From contig CAQUUC010000004.1 in assembly GCA_948896235.1 (NCBI GenBank), forward strand, positions 65,554 to 129,553: a stretch of 64,000 bases of DNA, given 5' to 3'. The translations under genes were made by a program, and so were the position numbers. This stretch comes from an uncultured Clostridia bacterium (GTDB taxonomy: Bacteria; Bacillota; Clostridia; TANB77; CAG-508). Below, piece by piece: positions 2,648-62,120 of the stretch. Every line of letters begins with the position of its first letter. Position 1 is the stretch's first letter. The notes below the pieces were generated by a model. That model saw only the letters and a list, made by a program, of their open reading frames with translations, ran no database searches and was not told the DNA's origin.

Positions 2648-3159
2648 TTTGAATTCTCACCACCATCTTGGTTAAAAGCATCAATTACTTTAGTCATATT
2701 AAATAATTGCACGTATTGTTCTACTTTACTTTTTCTACTTTCCTTTAAGTATGGCTTTAAAGAAAGTAACAAATTTGAACGAGGATCATTCTTATTGGAA
2801 TTCATTTTATCCATTATAGATTTCATTTTAAGTAACATATTTATATCAAAATTCGGAATAGAATTAGTAGAACTATCAGTATTATTAAAATCATTAGAAT
2901 TAGAGGAATTATTAGAAGTAGTATTATTAGAATTACTAAACATATTCATAATATTTTTTAATATATCTGGGTTAATAGAATTATTATTGAAATTATTAGA
3001 GGTATTATTGTTATCAAAATTGTTGTTAAAATCACTATTATTAAACGTGCCACCATTAGAATTATTATTTTTCATATTATTCATCATATTTTTAATATCG
3101 TCTGGTATATTACCATTTTTCATAGCATTTGCTAAATTATTCATAAAATCAGAATCCAT
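2644..3159 (-). CDS. Hypothetical Asn-rich low-complexity protein
   Basis: 171 aa ORF with strong RBS (AGGAGGGTAG). Translationally coupled to the downstream Tyr-rich ORF. Possible sporulation-sigma-like -10 (CATATACTA) about 60 nt upstream. Confidence 0.45.
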   Translation of the reverse strand: MDSDFMNNLANAMKNGNIPDDIKNMMNNMKNNNSNGGTFNNSDFNNNFDNNNTSNNFNNNSINPDILKNIMNMFSNSNNTTSNNSSNSNDFNNTDSSTNSIPNFDINMLLKMKSIMDKMNSNKNDPRSNLLLSLKPYLKESRKSKVEQYVQLFNMTKVIDAFNQDGGENSK

Positions 3160-14276: not shown

Positions 14277-16783
14277 ATGTTTCAAAATCTTCGGAGGACA
14301 AGTTGAGGTCCAAGAGGAATTTAATGATAATTATGAAAAAAATTATAAAATAAAAATATTCTTAAAGGATTCATTTACAATTCAAAAAATAGTATTATAC
14401 ATACTTAGTTTTATGCTATCTACCATATCAGGTATAAGTGGTATTGCGCCATTTGGAATTTCAATATTTGCAGCAGTACTATCCAACAAAATACCAGCGT
14501 TAATTGTATATATATTAACAATAATAGGAACTTTTGTTGGATTAGGTAGCGCACAAGCTCTAACATATATATTAACATCCCTTGTTTTTGTTGTAATGAC
14601 TCTAGTATTTAAACCAAGGGAAAGTGAAGAATACCAAAATGAAAAATTAAAACTTCGGTAAGTATGTATTTATATCTACACTTTTAGTACAAGCTTCAAG
14701 TTTTATATTTAAAGATTTTATGGTATATGACCTATTAGTATCAATAGGTGTTGCAATATCATCATACATATTTTATAAAATATTTGCAAATTCAGTAATA
14801 GTAATAAATGAATTTGGAATAAAAAAAGCTTTCGCAATTGAAGAAGTAATAGGTGCTAGTATTTTACTTGCTATATCTGCTTCAAGCTTTAGAGAATTAA
14901 GTATATTTGGGTTTGAAATAAGAACAATATTAAGTATTTTAATAGTTTTAGTATTAGGCTGGAAAAACGGAGTATTAGTTGGTGGAACAACTGGTATTAC
15001 AATAGGAACAATTTTAGGTCTAACCAATATGGAAATGCGGAAGTTTAGAGATAGCATCATATGCACTTTCACGGAATGATTGCGGGAATTTTTTCAAAAC
15101 TTGGAAAAGTTGGGGTAATAGTAGGATTTATATTAGGAAATGGAATTCTTGCATATGTTGCAACAGGAAATATGCGGGGGAACAGTAATATACTTTAAAG
15201 AAATACTAATTGCATCATTAGGTTTATTGTTAGTACCAAATAATATTAGTATAGATATAGAAGAAATACTTGGAAAATCAAAATTATTACCTTCAGGACC
15301 TGTAAGTAGACTCGAAAATAATAAAGAAACAATATATAGATTAAATAATGTATCTGAAACTATTTCTGAAATTGCTGATACATATAAAGAAGCTGCAGCA
15401 ACAGTTGTTGAAGAAGATGAAATACAAGAAAACAAAAACTTAAAAATATTTATAGAAGAGCTACAAAACAATTTAGAGGGATTAGAAGAAAATATTTTAT
15501 ATGAAGATTTACAAAATGAGGAAAATGAAGAAATTTTAAAAGATATTTTTAACCTATTACTAGAATGTGGAAAAATTACAAGAAATGAATTATTAGAAAT
15601 ATTTGCAAATCATAATAACTATATAATAGGCTTTGATAATGTAGAAATTAGTATGAAACTAGAAGAAGATATAAAATGTATTATGGATATTATAAATGAA
15701 ACCTATAAAAAGCTTAAATTAAATTTAATTTATAAGCAAAAGATAGATGAAAATAAACGTAATCTAGGAAATCAATTAGATGGTGTATCAAAAGTAATAT
15801 CTTCACTTGCAGATAGTTTGGAAAAGAATATAGAAGATGAAACCAAAAAATTTATAGCCAAGAGAGAGGAAATAATACTACTGGCAAGAGAGAAAAATAT
15901 AGATATACAAGATTTAAATATAAGACAAGAAAAAACAGGTAGATACATAGTAAATGTATATGTAGATTCATGTATTGGACCGGAAGATAAAAGAGGATGT
16001 TCTGTTCAAGTTATGGAAAAAATACTTTCTAAAGTATTAGGAGAAAAAATAGTATTACAAAAAAGTAATTGTGGCTTCAAAAATGAAACAAATCTATGTG
16101 TAAATACATATGCATCGCTAGATAAATATATATTACAGCTTGGATTATCTAAGAAAACAAAAGATGGTTCAAGTGTGTCAGGAGATTCCTGTTTAACATT
16201 AAAATTAGATGATGGAAAATATCTACTTGCAATAAGTGATGGAATGGGTACAGGACCAAAAGCAAGAGGGGCTAGCCAAATAGCAATAAAAATGTTACAA
16301 AGACTATTATCTAGCGGATTCGATAAGGATACATCAATAGAATTAATAAATTCTACATTATCTCAAACTACTGAAGAAGATACCTTTGCAACTTTAGATA
16401 TTGCAATACTTGACCTTTATGCAGGAAATATAGAATTTATAAAAAATGGGGCATGTCCAACATATATAAAGGAAAATAATAAAAAAGTACAAATAATAAA
16501 AGCATTAACATTACCTGCAGGCATATTAGAAAACATTAATCTAGTAGTGTATGACAAAGATATAGAAGAAAATGATATATTATTAATGTGCTCAGATGGA
16601 ATAATGGAATCAAATACAGAATATCAAAACAAAGAACTATGGCTAAGAGACATCTTAGAAAGTATAGAAACAGATAATGTTCAAAAGATTGCAGATATAA
16701 TAACAAAAGAATCAATAGATAATGGCTACGGTATAGCAAAAGATGATATGACAATTATAGTAGCAAAATTTATAAAAAGATAA
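14277..16783 (+). pseudogene. spoIIE: Stage II sporulation protein E (PP2C phosphatase, membrane); frame broken 5 times (extra C at 14292, 14656, 15038, 15072, 15175)
   Basis: N-terminal multi-TM region (ISGISGIAPFGISIFAAVLS..., GMIAGIFSKLGKVGVIVGF) and C-terminal PP2C domain (LAISDGMGTGPKARGAS...LMCSDGIMES). Pieces lie in ORFs 14413..14661, 14720..15079 and 15140..16783 plus an unlisted N-terminus from ATG 14277 (RBS GAGAGGTGG). Each junction sits at a CGG whose C removal gives Gly and rejoins the frames. Confidence 0.8.
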
Positions 16784-16784
16784 T

Positions 16785-16813
16785 TTGACAAATTTGAATT
16801 ATATGTGTATAAT
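16785..16813 (+). promoter_or_regulatory. Consensus sigma-A promoter (TTGACA-17-TATAAT) driving a small RNA
   Basis: Perfect TTGACA at 16785-16790 and TATAAT at 16808-16813 with a 17 nt spacer, immediately after the spoIIE stop. Confidence 0.55.
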
Positions 16814-16820
16814 AAAATAG

Positions 16821-16906
16821 GAAATGAAAACCACAATTTGTGGTTGCCACATATATTGTAACAACACATCTGCTGGGCAAAGCAAGGATGTGTTGTTTTG
16901 TTTATT
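16821..16906 (+). ncRNA. Putative antisense small RNA (type I antitoxin candidate), about 85 nt, two hairpins, intrinsic terminator
   Basis: Starts about 7 nt after the consensus -10. Hairpin AACCACAA/TTGTGGTT. Terminator hairpin AACAACACATC...GATGTGTTGTT followed by TTTGTTTATT. Convergent with, and overlapping the 3' end of, the minus-strand peptide gene. Confidence 0.4.
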
Positions 16907-17003
16907 CCTTATTCAACAAAATTATGTATATAATCGCTAATAAGGCTACGTTTATAGTTAGGGAAATTCCCAATGCATATATTAAAAATAATATAAATTC
17001 CAT
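16902..17003 (-). CDS. Small hydrophobic peptide, 33 aa (MEFILFLIYALGISLTINVALLAIIYIILLNKE); type I toxin candidate
   Basis: Strong RBS AAAGTGAGGTGG 8 nt before ATG. Single predicted TM helix with charged C-terminal tail. Stop lies inside the shared bidirectional terminator hairpin. Not in the supplied ORF track (too short). Confidence 0.4.
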   Translation of the reverse strand: MEFILFLIYALGISLTINVALLAIIYIILLNKE

Positions 17004-17222
17004 AAACACCACCTCACTTTCTTATAGCTAACACTATAAAGTAAAGTGGCAACACTCTTGCTTATCTCATTTCCTATGATAAATACTATACTATATGTTT
17101 TACAAAAAAGCAAGTAAATAATTTTAATTTTATAAAAACTATTTTTCAGTCTCGTACTTTTCTTTTACTTTAAAGTATGATATAGTATAAAATGTAAAAT
17201 AAACCTTGGAGGTATTAAAAAT

Positions 17223-35941: not shown

Positions 35942-36110
35942 TTGACAGCTTAGCATATATGAGATATAATAATTACATTCTTAAAAGAAGAAGTCATCCG
36001 CTTCTCACCTTATCTAATTTGGGAGAAAGGTTATAAACAATAGTTTATAGTGCTAATTGATTAGCATGGGTTTTAAAGTGGATTGACTAAAAAGTCAATC
36101 TTATTTTTTT
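35942..36110 (+). promoter_or_regulatory. infC-rpmI-rplT promoter (TTGACA-17-TATAAT) and L20-leader-type 5' UTR with terminator/attenuator hairpin
   Basis: Consensus promoter at 35942-35970. About 130 nt structured leader ends in GATTGACTAAAAAGTCAATC plus a T-run immediately before the infC RBS, the typical L20 autoregulatory leader arrangement in Firmicutes. Confidence 0.6.
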
Positions 36111-36123
36111 GGAGGTGTTTTAT

Positions 36124-36639
36124 ATAAAACAAGAATTACCAATTAATGAACAAATACGTTTAAAACAAATACAACTAATTGATGACGAAGGTCAAAAAAG
36201 AGGAACAATGGATACGCATGAAGCTTTAGAAATTGCGTATGAGAAAAACTTAGATTTAGTATTAGTGGCACCAAATGGAAATCCACCTGTTTGTAAAATA
36301 ATGAACTATGGTAAATACAAATTTGAACAAGCGAAAAAAGAAAAAGAAGCAAAGAAAAAGCAAAAAACCTTCGAACTAAAAGAACTTAGAATTACACCAA
36401 ATACAGAGGAACATGATTTTAATTTCAAAGCAAAAAATGCTAGAAAATTCATTGAAGATGGATGTAAAGTGAAAATTACAGTTCGTTTTAGAGGAAGAGA
36501 ATTAAACTATGTAAAACAAGGTGAAACTATATTAAATCAATTTATAGAAGAATTATCTGATATTGCTACACCTGAAAAAAAACCTGTATTAGAAGGTAAA
36601 AATATGTTTATTATATTAGCTAAAAAAGCTGAAAAATAA
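36124..36639 (+). CDS. infC: Translation initiation factor IF-3 (non-AUG start, probably AUA at 36124)
   Basis: LPINEQIRLKQIQLIDDEGQ...NPPVCKIMNYGKYKFEQ matches IF-3 end to end. SD GGAGGTG sits 6 nt before ATA. IF-3 genes characteristically use AUU/AUA starts. Confidence 0.85.
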   Translation: MKQELPINEQIRLKQIQLIDDEGQKRGTMDTHEALEIAYEKNLDLVLVAPNGNPPVCKIMNYGKYKFEQAKKEKEAKKKQKTFELKELRITPNTEEHDFNFKAKNARKFIEDGCKVKITVRFRGRELNYVKQGETILNQFIEELSDIATPEKKPVLEGKNMFIILAKKAEK

Positions 36640-61036: not shown

Positions 61037-62120
61037 ATTCTTCTACATATATATTATTACCAATAAATAATCTTTTTATCTTACTAATAAGAATAGAAAA
61101 CAAATTTCGCTTTATAGCGACCAAGGATAATTCTTGGCTATTTTCAAAAGCATAACATTTTCTTTCTAGTTCAGCCATTTTTTGAATGTAATAGTCATTA
61201 AAAAATGTATAATTTGCTGTTGTACCAATTAAATTCTTATAATTATATAATTGTCTTCTATATTTTTCTACTTGCTCTAAATTTACGATTGATTTTAAGT
61301 TACTATCAAAATAGCTAGTCAAAATTAAATTCTGTGTATTAATAAATAATTCACTAATTTTTAAACGTAAATTAGAGATTTCATTTTCTATTTTATTTAT
61401 AACTTTAATTGAAAGATCACTATTACCAAGTTTTGTAACTTCAGCACTTAAAGTATCTTCTAATTCAATAAGTTTATCTAAATTACCTTGAATTTTATAA
61501 AATGCTTTTTCTGAAGTTAAAGAAATGAATTTTCTTTTAAAGCTATCATTACTATATAAAGTACTATTAAATAAAGCATATTCACCTGTAATATAAGCCA
61601 TTTGATTAATTAGATTACATTCCAAGGCATAATAATATGGACTGTTTGTAGGAAATGTTATATCAAAATATTTAACAATATCAGTTTTTTCATTTAAAGC
61701 TTTAGAACTCATAAGTTGTACAGCAGCTTCATTTAGTGCCATACCAGGTAACCTAGAATCTGTGAAATCACAAAGTCCTAAGTGAATAAGATTATGCTTT
61801 GTATCACGAAGTTCTTGTAAATAATGGATACATTCATGTGTAGCATATGAATCTATATTAGAAAAATCTATATCATTACTAAAATAAATTGAAGAATTTC
61901 TATAATAATATTTAGCTTGGGCCATACTATGAGGCATTTTTGCAATATACATATTAAGTCTTGAAAGCCTAATAAACAATTCATTACAATTTAAATTCTG
62001 CTCAGGAAATGCCATTACAAGTTTTGTAGCGACATTTTTTGCAATAGTTATAACACTAAGAGTATCTAGTGGTTTTATTACTTCAATTCCTTCTTTTTTC
62101 AATTCTGTTTTTATACTCAT
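61035..62120 (-). CDS. Hypothetical protein with HExxH zinc-metallopeptidase motif (ATHECIHYLQ) and C-terminal coiled-coil region
   Basis: 361 aa ORF. A single HEXXH. No signal peptide. Family not recognised. Confidence 0.5.
   Translation of the reverse strand: MSIKTELKKEGIEVIKPLDTLSVITIAKNVATKLVMAFPEQNLNCNELFIRLSRLNMYIAKMPHSMAQAKYYYRNSSIYFSNDIDFSNIDSYATHECIHYLQELRDTKHNLIHLGLCDFTDSRLPGMALNEAAVQLMSSKALNEKTDIVKYFDITFPTNSPYYYALECNLINQMAYITGEYALFNSTLYSNDSFKRKFISLTSEKAFYKIQGNLDKLIELEDTLSAEVTKLGNSDLSIKVINKIENEISNLRLKISELFINTQNLILTSYFDSNLKSIVNLEQVEKYRRQLYNYKNLIGTTANYTFFNDYYIQKMAELERKCYAFENSQELSLVAIKRNLFSILISKIKRLFIGNNIYVEE

Follow-up and report, generated by a model that had tools for sequence, protein, structure and literature searches.

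A predicted type I toxin-antitoxin cassette with a putative fold-back mRNA downstream of spoIIE in an uncultured Clostridia bacterium

The DNA analysed here (the window) is a stretch of 64,000 nucleotides from an uncultured Clostridia bacterium (GenBank assembly GCA_948896235.1, contig CAQUUC010000004.1, positions 65,554 to 129,553), and all positions given below are those of the window unless a locus is named. Directly downstream of spoIIE it carries a compact cassette in which the gene of a predicted small RNA (sRNA) converges with an open reading frame (ORF) for a 33-residue hydrophobic peptide. A first-pass annotation, made from the letters of the DNA, had described this arrangement as a type I toxin-antitoxin (TA)-like locus. 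The parts of that description that can be computed were backed by comparison, namely an independent promoter, a conserved ORF, covarying hairpins, a sequestered Shine-Dalgarno (SD) sequence and a mobile cassette. The features of the locus are collected in Table 1.

Organisation of the locus and conservation of its parts

The ORF that ends at 16783 is SpoIIE (PF07228, E = 1.4e-30; also SpoIIE_N), and a single base separates its stop codon from the -35 hexamer of the sRNA promoter, which begins at 16785 and is perfect, as first proposed. Two perfect TTGACA-N17-TATAAT promoters are present in the 64-kb window compared to 0.23 expected by chance. A single perfect promoter would by itself be weak evidence, but its conservation over homologous cassettes is not weak. 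Promoters, and the frame opposite the peptide, were scored in 60 distinct cassette copies; the sRNA promoter matched the consensus at 12/12 positions in 39 of them and at 11/12 in a further 18, with a spacer sequence that varies freely, and this evidence is independent of the route by which the loci were retrieved. For the promoter of the peptide gene, the best matches across the family were mostly 8-9/12. In the window it was read from the sequence; a scan lists overlapping weak promoter-like sites around 17085-17113 on the minus strand, and the -10 and -35 columns are kept in the family alignment.

Table 1. Features of the cassette, with positions in the 64,000-nucleotide window
Feature	Position	Strand	Remarks
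sRNA (putative antitoxin) promoter, TTGACA-17-TATAAT	16785..16813	+	12/12 consensus match
Predicted sRNA	16820..16905	+	about 86 nt; single-stranded 5' leader AUAGGAAAUGA (block A), stem-loop 1 (SL1), spacer with GUUGCCAC (block B), terminator stem-loop 2 (SL2), U-tail
SL1 of the sRNA	16829..16845	+	read as its reverse complement, gives SL1' of the peptide mRNA
SL2, intrinsic terminator of the sRNA	16860..16906	+	stem 16860-16897, plus T-tract
ORF of the putative membrane toxin	16902..17003	-	33 codons (17003..16905) plus stop (16904-16902); MEFILFLIYALGISLTINVALLAIIYIILLNKE
SD sequence	17004..17020	-	AAAGUGAGGUGG plus 5-nt spacer to ATG; read from sequence; almost invariant in the family
Predicted peptide-mRNA promoter, TTGCTT-17-TATAGT	17113..17085	-	8/12 match; +1 near 17077
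Peptide-mRNA terminator-like hairpin (SL1')	16845..16829	-	SL1 reverse complement, then TTCATTTCCT; minus-strand terminator scan
Peptide mRNA 5' end	17046..17077	-	block A (17077-17066, AUAGGAAAUGAG), block B (17053-17046, GUUGCCAC); repeat the sRNA 5' sequence
Peptide mRNA 3' end	16817..16850	-	B' (GUGGCAAC, 16850-16843), SL1' hairpin, A' (UCAUUUCCUAU, about 16828-16817); fully complementary to the sRNA 5' half
Local SD-sequestering hairpin in the 5' untranslated region (UTR)	17008..17050	-	anti-SD CCACUUUAC with GUGAGGUGG, variable apical stem; from folds
ORF-internal alternative anti-SD	16940..16957	-	AUAAACGUAGCCUUAUU, complementary to SD and start region; two 8-bp helices
Conserved cassette core, sRNA promoter through peptide promoter	16785..17125		89% identity over 323 bp to viral contigs L006, L007
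Segment present in the window, missing at the same site in relatives	16784..17140 (about 357 bp)		blastn and alignment against L001-L003, L005

The sRNA expected from this promoter has two hairpins, the second followed by the T-tract of a terminator, in agreement with the RNA of about 85 nt put forward initially. Its fold has a minimum free energy (MFE) of -29.1 kcal/mol (z = -3.5). As SL1 could not be structurally aligned by MAFFT, per-sequence folds and realignment with a covariance model (R1) were used instead. In the per-sequence folds the order leader, SL1, spacer and SL2 was recovered in 26 of the 28 distinct sRNAs, with differing SL1 sequences, the stems among homologues being CCAC/GUGG, ACACACA/UGUGUGU, ACAUACA/UGUAUGU and UAACCGCA/UGCGGUUA. 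In the model-based alignment, SL2 was paired in 96.9% of cells with compensatory change at 7 of its 12 pairs, and SL1 in 78% with compensatory change at 4 of 6; the observed covariation score was reached by none of 500 shuffles, and slid controls dropped to 35-50% paired. The covariation analysis proposed earlier for these hairpins was therefore positive. R1 scored 87.4 bits at the locus, its only strong match in the window, whereas none of the 4227 Rfam models matched the window at gathering thresholds, the best local match having E = 0.61 in a local search to E 10.

On the opposite strand, the SD core GAGGTGG (17015-17009) stands 5 nt ahead of the ATG at 17003, bearing out the 33-aa hydrophobic ORF with a strong SD that had been annotated. 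A GTG at 17012 was considered as an alternative start and rejected, as it sits within the SD, while the ATG is invariant and its 5-nt spacer fixed over the peptide variants. Residues 3-30 of the peptide are uncharged and largely hydrophobic, followed by a polar NKE tail. The stop codon, previously placed inside the terminator hairpin, in fact falls in the T-tract, 5 nt past the stem.

Thirty-nine distinct intact variants of the peptide were collected, of 32-37 aa, the longer ones staying in frame. Of the columns in a six-variant alignment (A3), 15 are invariant, among them L5, L7, I8, S14, T16, N18, L21 and L22, and the C-terminus reads NKE, NKQ or DKE, reaching at most KIDKE in longer variants. 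Pairwise dN/dS is about 0.42, and the GC-rich codons TCC, AAC, GCC, TAC and AAG are kept in a 28% GC background. Purifying selection on the peptide ORF is supported by these comparisons, and the possibility raised at the outset that the ORF might not be conserved did not materialise. The plus-strand frame opposite the peptide coding sequence (16840-17031 in the window) is open in 56 of the 60 copies, but as its length ranges over 44-112 aa with no fixed start or stop it is read as a shadow ORF, and was rightly suspected to be spurious. Gene callers sometimes choose this frame, or a 5'-extended peptide ORF, over the 33-aa gene.

The peptide resembles nothing in the collections of named families. 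Pfam-A (hmmscan) and NCBIfam returned no family at E up to 10, the Fst_toxin profile being thus unmatched, and PHROGs gave no family, with a non-significant similarity to the phage holin phrog_920 (E = 0.3-0.4). Exact look-ups of the 33-aa, 36-aa and 63-aa products gave no entry, and a full-text literature search for the peptide strings LFLIYA and TINVALL found zero occurrences, shorter strings matching unrelated words only. The homologous peptides are nameless in the public protein collection, and the majority of the copies are not called as genes.

Read in reverse complement, SL1 with the UUCAUUUCCU that comes after it is the only minus-strand terminator-like site in the locus; therefore, the peptide mRNA should span the whole sRNA gene. 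Since the sRNA (16820-16905) maps wholly 3' of the last sense codon of the peptide ORF, on the opposite strand, the overlap of the two RNAs would lie in the 3' UTR of an mRNA of about 260 nt. The convergent overlap at the 3' ends that had been compared to txpA/RatA and bsrG/SR4 was thus confirmed as a layout, but it probably covers the entire sRNA gene and not its hairpin alone.

No tRNA or transfer-messenger RNA was found by a scan of the window, and no second copy of the peptide or of the cassette; a similarity of 38 nt at 61379-61414 falls in AT-rich coding sequence.

Insertion behind spoIIE and distribution of the cassette

Five related loci (L001-L005) were found with the SpoIIE C-terminal domain, at 62-93% identity. 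In L001-L003, about 14 nt stand in place of the segment 16784-17140 and complete a native spoIIE terminator (AGUACGAG...CUCGUACUUUUCUUUU), of which the window retains the right arm alone, the left arm having been lost with the insertion. L005 has a different insert of about 190 bp with the same right junction, and L004 has nothing comparable. The sRNA covariance model found zero copies in the five loci, and no target-site duplication was seen at the window junctions. From these alignments, the cassette appears to be an insertion specific to this genome among the relatives compared, so that the placement directly downstream of spoIIE, correctly described at first, is incidental and carries no functional weight: the cassette is absent from this site in the five relatives and found in about 100 others.

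As the left arm of the native terminator was removed, spoIIE transcripts now probably end at the sRNA terminator and would carry antitoxin sequence. With transcripts that end at 16860-16906 (the terminator remnant lies at 17141-17165) and include the complete antitoxin sequence, the amount of antitoxin could become linked to spoIIE expression when sporulation begins.

Two further observations were made around spoIIE. The insert of L005 (6636-6830), with the right junction AAACTATTTTTCA, bears on its minus strand a promoter-like site with TTGACA, together with a hairpin that runs into a stretch of T, and on its plus strand GAAAGTGAGG, similar to the SD region of the cassette; it has neither a hydrophobic ORF nor a match to the sRNA model, and could represent either a remnant or a small-RNA cassette of another kind. 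In addition, the N-terminal membrane part of spoIIE is spread in the window over at least three frames (ORFs 14413-14661, 14720-15079 and 15061-15198, then 15140-16783). The break just ahead of MEFLHMLQ is common to L001 and L005 (around 4998), while L002 reads through the junction, and it may reflect either a conserved split or pseudogene, or a recurrent error common to these assemblies.

Outside the spoIIE context, a search with the terminator stem led to two IMG/VR contigs (L006 and L007), both from one sample, each with an intact peptide that is 85% identical and a perfect promoter with an unrelated spacer; IMG/VR yielded no further contigs. In L006 an amidase-holin gene pair lies on either side of the cassette, and a tail-fibre gene comes after the second pair. 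A phmmer search against 1.84 billion representatives gave four true relatives of the peptide (P0001, P0002, P0004 and P0005; E = 2e-7 to 5e-4), three of which (P0002, P0004 and P0005) are longer, 5'-extended ORF calls bearing the peptide at their C-terminus. With the contigs of these relatives (L008-L021) and 80 metagenome loci obtained by a scan with the peptide alignment, about 100 cassette copies were gathered in total, mainly from human-gut samples. The homologue search suggested by the first-pass annotation thus recovered peptide-sRNA pairs elsewhere in gut Clostridia. No cassette match was found in GenBank phages or PLSDB plasmids searched by DNA and by protein.

In an alignment of 31 representatives homology stops sharply just beyond both promoters; therefore, the unit measures about 340 bp. 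Its flanking genes encode Peptidase_M23 proteins at 18 loci, a type IV secretion system (T4SS) coupling protein at 10, a phage Amidase_2 endolysin at about 13 (two similar protein clusters, one of them scanned against Pfam), sigma-70-like proteins at 7, HTH_3 proteins at 4 and, at one locus (L076), a DUF2806 protein with a sub-threshold Abi_alpha match. Some copies lie between housekeeping genes: one neighbouring product resembles purM (AIRS domains), and from a reading of their protein sequences, not from Pfam, we presume that others resemble recG, groEL, sbcD and miaB. A tRNA-Gly(UCC) or tRNA-Leu(CAA) gene lies about 50-100 nt from the sRNA-promoter end of the cassette in L035 (3287-3361), L087 and L090 (3261-3343), as would be expected if the cassette sat at the border of elements that had integrated at tRNA genes.

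The cassette, or its sRNA, is present in two diverged copies within 1.2-1.8 kb in L076 (3001 and 4625), L083 (about 589-680 and 1798-1883) and L091 (1325-1417 and 3001). Both L076 copies flank the DUF2806/Abi_alpha-like gene, which suggests a defence-island setting.

Some loci showed additional peculiarities. A fragment of an IS3-type transposase was at times seen near the cassette. In L011, L015, L018 and L019, which share the DNA_alkylation/AIRS context, two tiny called genes of 57 aa and 30 aa are found about 1 kb upstream of the cassette (e.g. L015 3678-3851 and 3922-4014, minus strand), and these might be another small-peptide module. The L075 copy (about 2991-3081 and downstream) keeps the ORF but has lost block A' and the sRNA promoter, homology breaking after SL1'; it may be a decaying or rearranged cassette.

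Predicted folding of the peptide mRNA

The first 12 nt of the peptide mRNA (block A) were found by RNAalifold, run on 29 full-length mRNAs, to pair with its final 12 nt (A'), and in the MFE structure of the window mRNA GUGUUGCCAC is additionally paired with GUGGCAAC.CAC close to the 3' end. The A:A' helix is paired in 97.3% of cases with compensatory change at 6 of 12 pairs, as in ACAAGAAAUG/CAUUUCUUGU of L011 and AUAGAAAAUAAG/CUUAUUUUCUAU of L076, and its pairing probability is 0.81-0.97 in all 29 sequences; for B:B' the corresponding values are 82.8% and 4 of 10 pairs. Overall, the first 35-45 nt or so of the mRNA are predicted to pair with the last 45-50 nt, forming a panhandle. Its 3' arm is the exact target of the sRNA, so that the panhandle and the duplex of the sRNA with the 3' UTR are mutually exclusive. 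As this arm is complementary both to the 5' UTR and to the 5' half of the sRNA, the blocks are common to the sRNA and the 5' UTR, and the two must compete. In line with this, the R1 model of the sRNA weakly matches the 5' UTRs, including that of the window (17003-17077, minus strand).

Because homogenisation of inverted repeats at the DNA level could yield the same pattern, a strand-asymmetry test was run. The 5'/3' duplex has a mean energy of -36.9 kcal/mol on the mRNA strand vs. -29.8 kcal/mol on the opposite strand, and in 33 of 33 haplotypes the mRNA strand gave the more stable duplex, with 30 G:U pairs against 7 A.C mismatches. This asymmetry favours a panhandle at the RNA level.

The SD is predicted to be hidden by two alternative partners. 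The basal helix of the local 5' UTR hairpin is paired in 85.8% of cases, with three pairs showing compensatory change, and its apical stem has compensatory change at 6 of 6 pairs. The ORF-internal partner (AUAAACGUAGCCUU) forms two 8-bp helices that are 97.7% and 94.2% paired in 28 sequences with zero compensatory change, and the AAC and GCC codons within it are conserved despite the 28% GC of the genome. Ensemble calculations left the SD mainly paired whichever state was modelled. When the panhandle is formed, the SD often changes over to the ORF-internal partner and becomes somewhat more accessible (unpaired probability 0.02-0.39); when the 3' UTR is blocked, mimicking a bound sRNA, its partner in most homologues is the anti-SD of the 5' UTR, at a probability of 0.8-1.0. 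A direct action of sRNA block B on the SD in trans was also considered and judged weak, as only about 6 bp (CCAC:GGUGG) form, two of them wobbles.

Interpretation and comparison with known systems

Taken together, we interpret the cassette, with a probability of about 0.75, as a new family of type I TA system that joins a 3' overlap of the txpA/RatA kind to a hok-like fold-back, and as an accessory unit, associated with mobile elements, that travels between gut Clostridia and the prophages and conjugative elements they carry; the peptide would be the toxin and the sRNA the antitoxin. The features that define the class are present by prediction: a hydrophobic peptide shorter than 60 aa, an antisense RNA with its own terminator and its own promoter (at least 11/12 in 57 of the 60 copies), and an occluding mRNA structure. 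On the stable mRNA and labile antitoxin typical of such systems, the data that bear are the asymmetry in promoter match (12/12 vs. 8-9/12) and the predicted panhandle.

The mechanism that we envisage begins with the weak sigma-A promoter (17113-17085), from which an mRNA of about 260 nt would be made for a single-helix membrane peptide, presumably toxic, while the consensus promoter would supply an abundant sRNA fully complementary to the mRNA 3' UTR. The folded mRNA would be a stable, poorly translated store, its SD hidden by the anti-SD of the 5' UTR or of the ORF. Excess sRNA would invade the 3' UTR and form a duplex of about 85 bp to be cut by RNase III, as in txpA/RatA and bsrG/SR4, for which such cleavage of the toxin-antitoxin duplex is established, and its binding would also release the 5' UTR to clamp the SD within the local hairpin. 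Upon loss of the cassette or its host element, the short-lived sRNA would decay first and the stable mRNA, possibly after trimming, would yield a membrane-damaging peptide. In this scheme the panhandle may be either the inert store, as for hok, or else the translatable form.

A more specific version of this mechanism is put forward tentatively, at somewhat less than even confidence: the antitoxin, similar in sequence to the mRNA 5' UTR, would displace it from a hok-like panhandle, so that one step would give both a 3' UTR duplex exposed to RNase III and a ribosome-binding site clamped by the 5' UTR, in a family widespread in human-gut Clostridia, prophages and conjugative elements and absent from all the protein and RNA family libraries searched. 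A 3'-targeting antitoxin that resembles the 5' UTR is possibly a new variant among these systems.

Several points weigh against the assignment as a type I TA system. Both transcripts, the toxicity and its neutralisation are predictions from sequence. The 3' end of the mRNA is likewise placed from sequence, and should transcription mostly end directly behind SL1', A' would be reduced to about 8 nt. The SD is predicted to be occluded in all the modelled states, so that none of them stands out as the translatable form. The covariation counts come from related sequences and are not independent events. Homologues were mostly retrieved via the peptide, so that the intactness of the ORF is partly an ascertainment effect, and third codon positions vary no more than first ones, so that constraint at the RNA level confounds the coding signal. 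Finally, no known toxin family in Pfam, NCBIfam or PHROGs was matched, and the peptide tail is just NKE, whereas many type I toxins, those of Clostridioides difficile among them (PMC6563280), carry a Lys-rich or bulky charged one.

The last point leads to the best placed of the alternatives, which we nevertheless consider unlikely: that the peptide is a non-toxic small membrane peptide (a modulator of membrane proteins, or a phage-exclusion or holin-like accessory factor) tuned by a cis-antisense RNA, with no addiction logic. Its short tail is unlike the classic ones, it shows the faint similarity to a phage holin mentioned above, some copies lie directly after phage lysis genes and the toxin role is a prediction. 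However, the holin match is non-significant, and the layered occlusion of the SD, the consensus antisense promoter against a weak sense one, the fold-back mRNA, the patchy mobile spread and the multiple copies are hallmarks of type I toxins in particular and not of ordinary small membrane proteins.

That the sRNA is the true product, a trans-acting regulator carried on mobile elements, with the opposite transcript mainly a decoy or sponge and the ORF incidental, is quite improbable in our view. The strongest signals, the perfect promoter and the covarying hairpins, do belong to the sRNA, and the CCAC motif conserved in its single-stranded spacer could recognise SD-like GGUGG sequences elsewhere; but an incidental ORF would not be expected to keep its length, start codon, SD and C-terminus in 39 variants, with a dN/dS of 0.42 and frame-preserving lengths of 32-37 aa.

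Slightly less probable still is a non-coding mobile repeat resembling a miniature inverted-repeat transposable element (MITE), in which A/A' and B/B' would be transposase or recombinase sites kept alike by DNA processes. An indel of about 340 bp with internal inverted repeats, found at many unrelated sites and at times near tRNA genes or the IS3-type transposase fragment, has this appearance. Nevertheless, the repeats are internal and coincide with the two transcription starts rather than with the limits of homology, the window junctions lack a visible target-site duplication, the ORF and the promoters are conserved as well, and the better pairing on one strand (33 of 33 haplotypes, G:U 30 vs. 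A.C 7) would not arise from repeats maintained in DNA.

Lastly, that the plus-strand RNA is simply the spoIIE 3' UTR or terminator and the minus-strand ORF a matter of chance, as the abutting promoter and the sRNA hairpin being now the sole terminator after spoIIE might suggest, is refuted by the comparative data, since the segment is missing after spoIIE in the five relatives, of which L001-L003 keep a different native terminator, and the cassette is found with its consensus promoter in dozens of contexts unrelated to spoIIE, contrary to what read-through without a promoter of its own would give.

The favoured assignment as a type I TA system can be set against the known members of the class. 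With txpA/RatA and bsrG/SR4 of the Bacillus subtilis skin and SPbeta prophages, the cassette shares the convergent genes, the small hydrophobic peptide, an antisense RNA to the 3' part of the toxin mRNA and the carriage by prophages or mobile elements. In bsrG/SR4, binding of the antitoxin at the 3' end both promotes decay and tightens the occlusion of the SD (PMC3834814), which corresponds to the refolding predicted for the cassette from the ensembles with a blocked 3' UTR. The cassette differs from both in that the overlap lies wholly in the 3' UTR and spans the entire sRNA, and no peptide or RNA similarity was detectable (Pfam and NCBIfam to E 10; Rfam). To our knowledge, a long 5'-3' panhandle with an sRNA that resembles the 5' UTR has not been described for either system.

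SD sequestration and long-distance 5'-3' interactions are hallmarks of type I toxin mRNAs (PMC8594479), and the cassette agrees in layout with type I TA systems in general. In hok/Sok of plasmid R1 and aapA1/IsoA1 of Helicobacter pylori, the toxin mRNA is kept inert by 5'-3' end pairing, with covariation, and by layered SD occlusion (PMC8594479), features that are predicted in the cassette too. In contrast, the antisense RNAs of those systems target the 5' or translation-initiation region, and 3' trimming activates the mRNA, whereas here the 3' arm of the fold-back would be the target; furthermore, no mok-like leader ORF was seen upstream, there is no homology to Hok or AapA, and the host is Gram-positive.

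The par locus (fst/RNA II) of Enterococcus faecalis pAD1 is similar in its convergent transcription, its hydrophobic peptide of 33 aa, a 5' structure that limits translation and short repeat blocks at the 5' ends of both RNAs. However, the par repeats are direct in the DNA, which makes the RNAs complementary at their 5' ends, and a bidirectional terminator is shared; the blocks of the cassette are inverted in the DNA, so that both RNAs start with the same sequence, and it is to the 3' end of the mRNA that the sRNA is complementary. The peptide, in addition, has no Fst/Ldr match in Pfam.

SprA1/SprA1AS of Staphylococcus aureus is another 3'-overlapping cis-antisense pair, with a membrane peptide of about 30 aa and a separate 5' domain of the antitoxin with a regulatory role. 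SprA1AS acts in trans through this non-overlapping 5' domain on the SD and start codon, whereas the 5' half of the cassette sRNA lies inside the overlap and the weak 6-bp CCAC:GGUGG contact is its only plausible one with the SD.

Regarding Clostridia, experimentally characterised type I TA systems are those of C. difficile only; they are prophage-borne, with a stable toxin mRNA and an unstable antitoxin RNA, and the toxins, of 34-53 aa, have an N-terminal transmembrane helix (PMC6563280). The cassette resembles them (CD0956.2/RCd10, CD2907.1/RCd9, CD0977.1/RCd11 and others) in its clostridial host, convergent overlapping genes and prophage association. By their descriptions they are set apart by Lys-rich charged tails and, often, by links to CRISPR arrays or c-di-GMP riboswitches and SigB promoters, compared to the NKE tail and sigma-A consensus of the cassette, and no CRISPR array or riboswitch was noted near the cassette copies examined. 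As its peptide and RNA fit no described family, the cassette is placed as a probable new family within the type I TA class.

Type I TA systems are nearly invisible to annotation, and the cassette family would add a second, sequence-unrelated example to the clostridial ones. The roughly 100 natural variants suffice to read RNA structure from covariation, and the combination of 3'-end antisense pairing and 5'-3' fold-back in one small unit could make it a compact model for the control of translation by a distant antisense RNA. In practical terms, such cassettes would stabilise prophages and conjugative elements, and might serve as counter-selection markers in gut Clostridia that are hard to engineer.

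Elsewhere in the window, the other perfect TTGACA-N17-TATAAT promoter lies at 35942-35970 (plus strand), about 140 nt 5' of infC (36109-36639), which is followed by rpmI-like and other genes. The leader, extending to 36108, matched no Rfam family at gathering score, and the region ahead of infC is probably a regulatory region of the L20-leader type.

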